Shown piece by piece: positions 10,488 to 36,180 of a stretch of DNA of 64,000 bases; position 1 is the stretch's first letter; every line of letters begins with the position of its first letter. The notes under the pieces were generated by a model. The model ran no database searches. It saw only the letters and a list, made by a program, of their open reading frames with translations, and had not been told where the DNA came from. Origin of the DNA: Octopus vulgaris (taxonomy: Eukaryota); assembly GCA_951406725.2 (NCBI GenBank), contig OX597829.1, positions 57,846,001 through 57,910,000 of the forward strand. The letters run 5' to 3'. The position numbers and the translations under genes are program-made.

Positions 10488-10535
10488 TGTCAGTGAACAG
10501 GTCGCGGTATGAAAGCGACGAAAATATTTTCACAA
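10488..10535 (+). ncRNA. Degenerate type I hammerhead-like motif with G3-C8 core, in the loop of a fold-back repeat (10395-10620)
   Basis: TTGTCA-GTGAACA-gGTCGC..GCGAC-GAAA-ATAT-TT-TCACAA. One stem I mismatch and one extra base at stem II. Confidence 0.45.
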
Positions 10536-10729
10536 ATTAAATTTAAATGTTGAAGTGAATCTAACGGTTTTTGTGTGTTTCTTAAATGGCTTATAAACAC
10601 CTTCCACGCTGCAATTGTTTTCGTTCCAGCACACGATCTCAGATCAGGTCACTTGCTATGCAAGTACATCTCCATATTTATTTTATATTTTAGCACAAAG
10701 TCTGGAATTTGTGGATTGAGTGGCGGGGT

Positions 10730-10895
10730 GGGCAGTCGACTGCATTAACCCAATGTTTCACTGATACTTAATTTATCGATCCCCAAAGGATGAAAGGTAA
10801 AGTCGCCCTCGGTGGAATTTGAACTCAGAACGTCAAGACAAACGAAATATCGCTCAGCATATCGCCCAGCTTGCTAACGAGTCTGCCAGCTCGAC
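10730..10895 (-). mobile_element. Third SINE family fragment
   Basis: Minus-strand GAGTTCAAATTCC B box and GAGCTGGCAGA..GTTAGC A-box region. Related fragments at 28820-28940. Confidence 0.6.
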
Positions 10896-11277
10896 GCGAT
10901 GTATGTATATATGTATGTATATGTACGTATGTGTGTGTATATAAATATATGTACATATGTATATATATATATATATATATATATATATATATATATATAT
11001 GTATATGTATATGTATATATATATATATATATATATATATGTATATATATGTATATATATAAATATATATATATATATATATATATATATATATATGTAT
11101 GTATATAGATATATGTATGAATGAATGTATGTATGTATATATGTATAAGCACGTATGTGCGTATGTATATAAATATATGTACATATGTATATATATGTAT
11201 GTATATATGTACATATGTATATATATATGTATATATATATATATATATATATGTATATATATATATATATATATATA

Positions 11278-11582
11278 TAATAGAAATATTAAAATTACTA
11301 AGTCTCTCTAAAAGAGAACAGCGGCAGCGTTCCCGGAAAATAATAGTTATCGCCATACTAATATGGCATTCTTATAAAAATAAGAATAAAGCTGTCCGCT
11401 TATTAGCTCCATGAGGCCATCGCCTTAAGTTAGCTATTTGACCTCCCTTGTTCGAAGGTTATATGGATACAGTTTGTGTATCAAATAGCTAACTTAAGGC
11501 GATGGCCTCATGGATCTAATAAGCGGACAGCTTTATTCTTATTTTTATAAGAATGCCATATTAGTATGGCGATAACTATTAT
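11278..11582. mobile_element. Fold-back fragment of the 362-bp hammerhead family (see 18053-18790), between (TA)n tracts
   Basis: 11342-11441 is inverted at 11480-11582, and the sequence is shared with 18053-18790. Confidence 0.85.
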
Positions 11583-32936: not shown

Positions 32937-33706
32937 GGTAAGCAAGCTACTTTATTTTATTAAATTTGCCATAAAGGCAATACACAGAGGGGACACTGCA
33001 ACACATGTGGGGACATATAACAACTAAAAGATAAAATATGATATAATGAATGCACATGAAGAACAAATTAAAATATGAAAATATGAATGATATCTGAAAA
33101 TGATATTATGAAGAGTGCGCTTCCCTTGTGTTTAAATGTACACAATTGTATATTGAGTGTGTGTGTGTGTGTGTGTGTGTGTGTGTGTGTGTGTGTGTGT
33201 GTGTGTGTGTGCGTGTGCGCGTGTATACACACACATATATATATATATATATATACATATGTATACACACACAGAGATATATCTGTATTTATACCTATTT
33301 CTATCTATCTATACACACGTACACACACAAACACACACACACACATACATATATGTATATATATACATACATACATACATACATACATACATACATACAT
33401 ACATATATATATATATATATATATATATATATATATATATATATATATATATATATAAGGGTAAAATATGAAAAATCAACGAAAACGCATATTGCAAATA
33501 GAAAAAGGCTATTTATGACAGGTAGTGACAAATATATACATTTAGATTGACTGAGGTAGTAATACGAGTCATAAAAGTCATTATTATGAGATGATTATAA
33601 GATGATAATAAAGTAAGAGAATAAAACGAACCAGTAGTTTACGCAACGCTATTCATCGTTTATGTGTGTGTGTGTGTGTGTGTGTGTGTGTGTGTGTGTA
33701 ATATAC

Positions 33707-33990
33707 GAGGGTGAGTCAAAAAGTAATGCCATTTGGTTTAGGACAGGTGTAATTGCCAACACAGGAACAAGTATCATACATCAAAATGAAGCTGGTCCTC
33801 TGTGGATCACATCCCTACTTCTCAATATAGTCACCGTTTCTCTCAATAGCAATGTTCAACCTTCGAATGCGAGCATGTATCCCTGCCTGGTAAAATTCCG
33901 TTGATTGTTCTTTGATCCACTTCTTCGCTACAGTTTTCGCTTTCTCGTCATTGGAATAATTTAGTGCCTTCAGACTATCATCTCTTTGGC
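33707..33990 (-). mobile_element. Mariner terminal fragment (TIR and transposase C-terminus)
   Basis: TA-CGAGGGTGAGTCAAAAAGT mariner-type TIR. Minus strand ends IERNGDYIEK*. Confidence 0.75.
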
Positions 33991-34090
33991 CCCTCGAAGC
34001 CCGTCGTATATATATATATATATATATATATATATATATATATATATATATATATATATATATATATATATATATATATATCCCTATATA

Positions 34091-36180
34091 TGATGTTTGC
34101 TTAATTCCATAGTGAATTGGATGTTGGGATGTATGTTGTTTAGTATGGTTTTGAATTCCAGGAGTTTTTCATAAGGTTCTTTCCATATGATGATACCATC
34201 ATCCAAATACCTTTTCCAGTTTTCCTTTAGGTAGGTGTGGAAAACTTGTCCAAATTTCTGGCGTGATATTTCATGATATATTTCGTGATATCAAATATCA
34301 CGCCAGAAATTTGGACAAGTTTTCCACACCTACCTAAAGGAAAACTGGAAAAGGTATTTGGATGATTGTATCATCATATGGAAAGAACCTTATGAAAAAC
34401 TCCTGGAATTCAAAACCATACTAAACAACATACATCCCAACATCCAATTCACTATGGAATTAAGCAAACATCATCTACCATTCCTTGATCTCCTAATTAT
34501 AAAAACACCTAAGAACCAAATCATAACAGACATCTACCACAAACCCACAGACTCACAACAATACCTCCTCTTTAGTTCATGCCACCCAAAACACACCAAG
34601 ACAAATATCCCTTTCAATTTGGCTAAAAGGGTATGCACCATTGTCTCGGATCCAAAAACACGAGAAATACGCCTTCAAGACCTCAAAAAAACACTATTAC
34701 AACGCCAATATCCCTCCACCCTTATAGAGTATGGAATAAAACGCGCCAAAGAACTAGATAACATTACACTGAAAACTACCCAACCTAACACCACACACAA
34801 CCTCAAAATACTTCCATACATTTCCACCCACAACCCCAAAAATATCGAAGCATACACCACAATCATACAAAACCTCAGTCTACTGTCAACAGACCCAAAA
34901 ATGAAAAACATTATAAATACACACAAAATCCTCAAATGTAAAAGGCAACACAAATCTTTAAAAAACTCTTGACAAATGCCAAACTTCACACACCACATCC
35001 ACCCCCAGCAGTAAAAAAATATGCACGCCCAAACTGTGGGACATGCCCCCTCCTACTTGAAGGTTCTGAATTTACCTTCAAACAAGGTACGAAGTTTAAA
35101 ATCAAGACTAACTTCTCCTGTTCCTCCGAGAACCTTATCTACGTTCTCACATGCGCTGGTTGCCAACATAATTATGTTGGACAAACGAGTCTCCCGTTAC
35201 GTAAACGAGTAGCGGTGCATAAAGAACAAATAAATCTCTCGGAATACCGACAAATTCCACTGAGTGACCACTTAGACTCATGTGCTAAAGACTTAAACCC
35301 CAAATTCTATATATTCCCCTTCTACCAATGTAAAGACGGCATCACCACACAGGAGAGAATTAACAAGGAGAATCTCTTTATTGAAAAATTCCAAACACAA
35401 CTTAATATACAAACTCCTCGTTGATCAAACTTCCCTTTTCTACCTCACTCTTCATGGATGGACTAACACAAATATATAAGGATACCATGCATTCATCACT
35501 TCAAGCTAAAACTTATATTCTTTAAATATCATTTTTACTATTGTTGTTATTACCATCATCTTTATTATTTATGATATAACAATCTGAAATGCAATTATCT
35601 ATGCAAATTTATATAATTAGAAAATAATATAAATAAAGTGTTAAAATCTGAAAGTTAAATTAACAAATAATTATATAAAAAAGATAATGCAAATGAAGCT
35701 AAAATGACAATTTTATAATTTGGGGTTTATCAGCAGCTTTTATTGAAGAACTCAAAAGAGTTGTCTCCCCTTATTCACAACACAGGAACTGAAGAACCAC
35801 AATTACTACTACTTCCTGTTTTGCCAACATCCTAAATTAAACCAAACAACACATGGCCTTAATCCCTTTGGATCCTAATACCTCAAGGTAATTTTTTCGT
35901 GAACAATCATTAAACTCAAGATACACAACGAACTCACAATGTATCGGAGTACTTATTTTTTAATTTTTATACATATTTATTATTATTCTTTTGCAAAAAA
36001 CAATGCAACTTTTTTCCCCTTTCTCATTTTTAAAAAACCTTTTCACCTAACTATTCTTGATAAGTCAAACTATGACGAAAACCGGTTTGAATAAATATAT
36101 ATTTATATATTTTTTCATTTTCTCATTTCATAAAAATTTTCTTTCAATCGAGCATTCTGCATTTTTACAATTTTTCCTTG
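34091..36180 (+). mobile_element. Penelope-like element, 5'-truncated with 5' inversion: RT C-half, GIY-YIG, 3' region with hammerhead
   Basis: RYLDDC, LPFLDL, YHKPTDSQQYL, NLIYVLTCAGCQHNYVGQT..RVAVH. 34091-34271 is the reverse complement of 34292-34472. (TA)n on both sides. Confidence 0.93.
36052..36093 (+). ncRNA. Minimal type I hammerhead with U3-A8 core in the Penelope 3' end
   Basis: UAUUC-UUGAUAA-GUCA-aacua-UGAC-GAAA-ACCGGU-UU-GAAUA. Confidence 0.72.

Follow-up and report, generated by a model that had tools for sequence, protein, structure and literature searches.

Minimal type-I hammerhead ribozymes have been described in metazoan Penelope-like elements, where about 1,300 matches with a natural U3-A8 pair (the Schistosoma mansoni variant) have been reported and where the minimal motifs have low activity in vitro (PMC4209133); natural covariation from C3-G8 to U3-A8 was also reported by Perreault et al. 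2011 (PMC3088659). In the active hammerhead conformation positions 3 and 8 are paired, and in a pairwise mutant scan the G-C exchange was the sole double mutant in this region to rescue activity (PMC9901934); similarly, C3G/G8C partly rescues a Penelope-like hammerhead in vitro, the single mutants being dead (PMC11167929). A further group of comparable elements, the non-LTR retrozymes (LTR, long terminal repeat), consists of non-coding tandem units that each contain one type-I hammerhead and occur as dimers and multimers (PMC7229834; bioRxiv 10.64898/2026.07.22.740005). Here we describe hammerhead motifs in a 64,000-nucleotide stretch of Octopus vulgaris DNA (contig OX597829.1, positions 57,846,001 to 57,910,000; hereafter the window), three of which have exchanged 3-8 pairs: G3-C8 in a Penelope-like element (family A), and U3-A8 in a retrozyme-like tandem repeat (family B) and in a second Penelope-like element (family C). 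These variant cores are the founder states of their families, and the exchanged pair probably preserves a slow, dimer-dependent self-cleavage.

Hammerhead motifs of the window

A scan of the window that leaves positions 3, 7, and 8 free and requires U4, G5, A6, and A9 identifies nine type-I motifs in seven separate elements, two of which are inverted pairs (Table 1). The 3-8 pair is Watson-Crick in all nine, with six C-G, two U-A, one G-C, and no mismatch, and 30 order-2 Markov shuffles of the window yield 0.53 motifs per window, or 0.23 with a Watson-Crick 3-8 pair. The G-C motif escaped a stricter first scan, its stem II being preceded by an extra G. Rfam gave 172 matches at E<=1; the 150 of these that were listed include no hammerhead family and all lie below their gathering scores. 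The relaxed scan was also applied to a genome sample of 80 stretches of 10 kb each (76 spread across the genome and four adjoining the window), and returned 25 motifs: 15 C-G, three U-A (at one locus), two G-C, one A-U, and four mismatched. Because the shuffled control of this sample gives 6.2 motifs per 800 kb, the mismatched motifs are mostly at chance level.

After each of the three variant cores come stem II, GAAA, a palindromic helix III, and the strand that completes stem I, and each motif has the type-I core set of U4, G5, A6, A9, G12, A13, A14, A15.1-U16.1, and H17 in type-I order. The canonical CUGANGA string is by definition absent from all three, which makes them less canonical but still hammerheads, U3-A8 being an accepted natural variant. 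The original prediction had named these three cores, stated that CUGANGA searches would overlook them, and asked whether the family consensuses fix them. UUGAAAA and UUGAUAA lie within the spans it gave, and GUGAACA is at 10493-10499 rather than 10494-10500; all three cores prove to be family-wide rather than private mutations, as described below, and descriptor searches based on CUGANGA do miss them, so that for family A alone about 6,000 genomic matches are overlooked. Its further statement, that the 3-8 pair is needed for catalysis and that paired exchanges partly rescue activity, agrees with the published mutants (PMC9901934, PMC11167929).

Table 1. Hammerhead motifs and associated elements of the window (positions from the first letter of the window)
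Feature	Positions	Strand	Basis and details
Family A type-I hammerhead motif	10484..10538	+	Scan; helix covariation with sister families
Family A stems			Stem I 10484-10492/10530-10538; extra G 10500; stem II 10501-10505/10515-10519
Family A remaining parts			GAAA 10520-10523; palindrome 10523-10528; U17 10529
G3-C8 core GUGAACA, fixed in family A	10493..10499	+	Pattern matches and loci selected by open reading frame
Partial copy of family A 3' end in inverted orientation, junction inside stem I	10407..10492	-	Self-inverted match 10407-10620
3' terminal repeat and tail, 5'-truncated piece of family A element	10486..10676	+	Similarity to copies bearing an open reading frame
Canonical C3-G8 hammerhead motif (core to residue 17)	11699..11772	-	Scan; inverted partner at 12241 without G12
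Canonical C3-G8 hammerhead motif	15814..15893	-	Scan; inverted pair with 16472-16551 (+)
Family B retrozyme-like tandem repeat, non-coding, 362-nt unit, about 1.3 copies	18052..18535	-	Adjoins (TA)n run
Family B type-I hammerhead motif, U3-A8	18224..18265	-	Core UUGAAAA (18259-18253); palindrome ACGCGU; C17 at 18230
Inverted partial copy of family B	18534..18788	+	
Canonical C3-G8 hammerhead motif	19134..19175	-	Scan; inverted pair with 19230-19271 (+)
Family C Penelope-like open reading frame, 5'-truncated and frameshifted (end of reverse transcriptase, GIY-YIG endonuclease)	34289..35424	+	Protein domains
Family C type-I hammerhead motif, U3-A8	36052..36093	+	Scan; core UUGAUAA (36057-36063); in 3' untranslated region
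Canonical C3-G8 hammerhead motif	36568..36616	-	Scan

A G3-C8 hammerhead in an autonomous Penelope-like element

The genomic copies of family A were counted with a 20-letter pattern matched exactly with position 8 free, once with a G and once with any other base at position 3; G3 is present in 6,116 of 6,291 matches and absent from 175, these exact-match counts, like those for families B and C, being lower bounds that are biased toward young copies. The first 100 G3 matches include 95 with C8, two with G8, one with A8, and two with U8, while in the first 100 matches without G3, C8 is kept in 88 and C3-G8 occurs in none. Reversed control patterns for families A, B, and C have no matches.

A protein search blind to the motif gives the same picture. 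It returned 30 loci selected by open reading frame (ORF), in 28 of which the motif lies about 1 kb after the stop codon, with G3-C8 in 28 of 28. Twenty further ORF-selected regions, reaching down to 75% protein identity, include 13 with G3-C8, three that are decayed, and four in which no motif was found; G3-C8 is thus kept in older subfamilies that differ in loop II. In contigs from four runs under four other organism labels, no letter other than G3 and C8 exceeds 5% at position 3 or 8. Ten family A loci have an identical 747-nt ORF segment in common, and the family has therefore moved recently.

In the longer copies the motif is joined through a microsatellite-rich 3' untranslated region to a frame encoding a reverse transcriptase (RT) and a GIY-YIG endonuclease. 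The frame at locus L315 is open for 1,025 aa, and its GIY-YIG domain scores above the cut-off; the RT has no Pfam match, although around its YVDD motif it matches another Penelope-like RT at E=2e-9. A PDB sequence search with this 1,025-aa frame gave no match, and a metagenome search with the family A protein gave one weak 39-residue match (L284), which is not used as support. Locus L374 contains a unit in which the ORF lies between direct terminal repeats, with two G3-C8 motifs in one orientation 4,261 bp apart. Copies of the family have 5' inversions and two 3' ends, and the inversion junction differs in position between copies, the 5' inversion being typical of Penelope-like insertions. The window copy is a truncated and decayed insertion, 90-96% identical to the 3' ends of the ORF-bearing copies L307, L315, L319, and L328, and a private G>C at 10531 breaks one of its stem I pairs. 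We also considered whether family A is only a non-autonomous element of 200 nt with one inverted arm, and dropped this idea since the longer copies reach the RT and GIY-YIG ORF.

Family A resembles the hammerheads of PMC4209133 in its extra base between positions 9 and 10.1, and the motifs described here share with them a location in terminal repeats, a palindromic helix III, G10.1-C11.1, and inverted pairs. The G3-C8 core was not found in the text of that paper or in its supplementary file 2 (no matches to four G3-C8 strings), and in the accessible part of PMC3088659, U3-A8 is the only natural variant named. No report of a natural G3-C8 hammerhead was found in the literature searched, where it appears as a laboratory mutant only, although unseen alignments and supplements could hold examples. 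An engineered C3G/G8C hammerhead was reportedly also made by Martick and Scott in 2006. The same exchanged pair is thus a laboratory mutant in the published constructs (PMC11167929, PMC9901934), whereas in family A, with its about 6,000 matches and its young autonomous copies, it is the wild type. The 3-8 tertiary pair thereby finds evolutionary confirmation in its G-C form, a form that in the literature searched occurs only as a designed mutant.

About 20 nt upstream of the family A G3 (loci L240-L269 and L285-L314) we note a branch-point-like CTAAC, a pyrimidine run, and a CAG, an arrangement with 406 exact matches; the CAG is replaced by TAG in the youngest family A subfamily. Many short copies start near the CTAAC/CAG point, which may be a 3' splice site, although a donor was not found. 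Other Penelope-like frames, one of them open for 936 aa, adjoin family A copies at L283:4194-7001 and L270:1927-4365.

U3-A8 hammerheads in families B and C

Family B has 798 exact matches to a pattern with positions 3 and 8 free, and U-A is present in all of the first 100. Many matches are spaced at 362 nt, and over 281 nt dozens of copies show 100% identity. There is one motif per unit, dimers and multimers of the unit occur, copies have 5' inversions, and the longest stop-free frame is 55 aa. In these respects family B is like the non-LTR retrozymes, from which it differs in its U3-A8 core. In run X10 a 392-nt family B contig closes on itself, as would also be expected of a tandem repeat.

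Words of family B from window positions 18060-18420 are present at >=90% in runs under seven organism labels, suggesting either closely related species or recent spread; none of the runs listed is recorded as RNA. A single contig of run X12 (depth 7), covering window positions 18211-18278, has 21 differing letters, of which 14 are given as plus-strand T>C changes and thus as A>G on the ribozyme strand, core A7 and A8 included. This contig looks like a product of A-to-I hyper-editing, if the run is RNA, as is guessed.

The family C ORF is preceded by an inverted piece from 34087 (a 5' inversion). Its GIY-YIG domain in the window matches PF01541 at E=1.8e-4, just under the curated cut-off, and in L277, a longer copy 97.7% identical to that in the window, RVT_1 is matched at E=2.3e-4, also under the curated cut-off. 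The family may be Neptune-like. The motif has the palindrome AACCGGUU and U17 at 36088, and U-A is present in 70 of 71 exact matches, the other being U-G.

Both of these cores have been published from nature, with UUGAUAA (family C) and UUGAAAA (family B) present in the Schistosoma alignment of PMC4209133, and families B and C add new members only. No similarity was found between the two families outside the motif, and their U-A pair may have a common or a separate origin. The original prediction had counted double changes in three separate families; the cores are indeed family-wide, but the number of independent exchanges that can be established is at least two, not three.

A sister lineage with C3-G8 cores

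A pattern combining C3-G8 with the stem II of family A identifies a sister group, D, with 1,581 C3-G8 matches. The A and D proteins are 55% identical over 807 residues and their 3' tails agree in 86 of 139 letters; when the tails of nine D loci were compared with 300 shuffles, four scored clearly above all of these, one just above, and four did not. A second motif-blind protein search returned 30 D loci, 28 of them with C3-G8. Homologous C3-G8 sisters thus exist for family A, and also for one U-A family in flanking DNA.

An alignment of 20 distinct ORF-linked A and D rows (four of the 10 D rows came from pattern searches) pairs in 92.3% of cells when the named hammerhead structure is imposed, compared with 22-47% for slid controls. 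Changes on both sides are seen at seven of 13 pairs, in stem I, stem II, helix III, and the 3-8 pair, and the last is paired in 100% of the rows (GC in 10, CG in nine, and UA in one). In contrast to the flanks, which are 62% alike, 11 core positions are unchanged between A and D (p ~0.005 under drift, a post hoc value), with G12, A13, A14, G5, and A6 kept in both lineages. A broader census of 1.94 Mb of DNA, enriched for these families, shows that all 13 of the motif clusters seen at >=2 loci and keeping U4, G5, A6, and A9, as the scans require, are Watson-Crick at 3-8 by majority, nine of them C-G, three U-A, and one G-C.

We also note a second natural exchanged pair, in which a C3-G8 motif and a U3-A8 motif lie in homologous repeats at one locus each, L170 (core at 4393, minus strand) and L076; these repeats agree at 66% of positions over 187 nt (E=3.6e-13). 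A U3-A8 subfamily within group D was considered and rejected, as the eight U-A copies are scattered and long-branched on the tree.

Probable retention of self-cleavage

Hammerheads with a short palindromic helix III cleave as dimers, and we suggest on sequence grounds that the founders' exchanged 3-8 pair, in both the Penelope-like and the retrozyme-like motifs, probably maintains slow self-cleavage of this kind. The exchange would have arisen once per founder lineage from C3-G8, and would have been kept since residue 8 is still held in position by a Watson-Crick pair. In a tandem transcript, two motifs may be joined by the palindromic helix III and cut on the 3' side of residue 17, giving unit-length or circularizable RNA and so trimming or circularizing the element RNA. 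Exchanged pairs would be tolerated if slow, possibly protein-assisted cleavage suffices. Selection would act on the replicating founders only, with genomic copies then decaying neutrally; the dispersed copies do decay as neutral drift predicts, and selection is for this reason readable only between founder lineages, so that an isolated U-A copy proves nothing. The predicted dimer is a hammerhead in family B, which also has a canonical GUC site, and in that family alone among the three.

Several observations weigh against retained cleavage or limit the argument for it. The covariation counts are of rows, not events, and come from the A/D lineage only, in which the G-C exchange of family A is one event, not ten; clusters with other core changes go uncounted in the census. 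In the protein tree, for which 26 of 29 loci were kept (L283, L370, and L373 had too little coverage), A is split from D with support 100 but the root is left unresolved, and the direction from C3-G8 to G3-C8 rests on C3-G8 being the general state. The predicted dimer of family A, whose palindrome is 6 nt of A-U pairs only, is just 1.9 kcal/mol better than two monomers and is without helix III. The monomer fold of family C is not a hammerhead, and its predicted dimer is over-extended; families A and C both have U17 (a UUU site). Other changes in the 3-8 region gave low activity in the pairwise scan (PMC9901934). Hammerhead mutants of an Anolis element had no effect on insertion in vitro, and cleavage of this element needed protein (PMC11167929). 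Naiads have spread without canonical hammerheads. The youngest autonomous family of D (L335-L364, L365, and L367), with open frames to 1,312 aa, has the core CUGAUGC in 26 of the 30 loci selected by ORF, an A9C change without compensation. This change is present in both repeats of full-length copies (for example L365:1137 and 5725), and older relatives have A9. As the family is young, a non-canonical and uncompensated core evidently did not stop its spreading, and selection for fast catalysis is therefore not established. The original proposal of selection for function rather than decay is supported insofar as the variant cores are family-wide and homologous C3-G8 sisters exist for family A, but spreading, as the A9C family shows, does not prove a fully active core.

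Much of this evidence would also fit a motif that has kept its fold while catalysis has been relaxed, serving as a structural or protein-binding RNA element with little or no cleavage, its 3-8 pair being retained for the fold or from earlier selection. We consider this unlikely, although it is the alternative that deserves most attention: the A9C core, the U17 sites, the weak helix III, the dispensability of cleavage for insertion in vitro (PMC11167929), and the poor in vitro activity of minimal motifs (PMC4209133) all point toward it. However, the 3-8 pair is part of the active conformation (PMC9901934), the catalytic-core residues common to A and D have been kept in both lineages, and the GUC site and predicted hammerhead dimer of family B weigh against it. 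Alternatively, amplification of a master copy could have spread two core mutations that arose by chance, without selection and with the pairing a coincidence. There is one event per lineage, as this would predict, and of the 19 dispersed D copies with changes at 3 as well as 8, nine are Watson-Crick compared with about 10 expected from the margins; U-A, a double transition, is the commonest double change in decayed D copies (8 of 19), and, as noted above, such copies do not group on the tree. We nevertheless regard this as improbable, because deriving G-C from C-G takes two transversions exactly at the paired positions in a core otherwise conserved relative to its flanks, because G-C persists across the subfamilies with different loops II and down to 75% protein identity, and because a mismatch is the majority state in none of the 13 clusters. 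There is next to no probability that the three motifs arose by mutation of individual copies or by chance matching; relaxed scans do find matches in shuffled sequence at the rate given above and the window copy of family A does have private changes, but the same cores recur in the genome in hundreds to thousands of matches, compared with none for the reversed patterns, and this, together with the 28 of 28 ORF-selected loci, refutes the explanation.

Family A may be the first natural genome-scale G3-C8 hammerhead, the wild-type ribozyme of an active retroelement, and with its A9C sister may represent hammerheads tuned down to slow, protein-assisted cleavage, a proposal that we put forward tentatively and as less than an even chance. 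Were it true, it would provide matched natural pairs (C-G, G-C, and A9C) with which to examine the purpose of the Penelope hammerhead. Whether Penelope-like elements depend on hammerhead cleavage can be tested directly on the closely related autonomous elements with C3-G8, G3-C8, and A9C cores.

Other features of the window

The window lies in a 2.8-Gb genome rich in microsatellites. Broken non-LTR retrotransposon frames with RT-like and endonuclease-like stretches are recognizable by eye at 4417-6427, 21171-27654, 46728-48911, and 50485-51084, all on the minus strand, as are mariner-like transposase fragments at 14213-15255 and 44431-45174, also on the minus strand. A tandem repeat with a period of 200 is present in 3.3 copies at 51538-52197.

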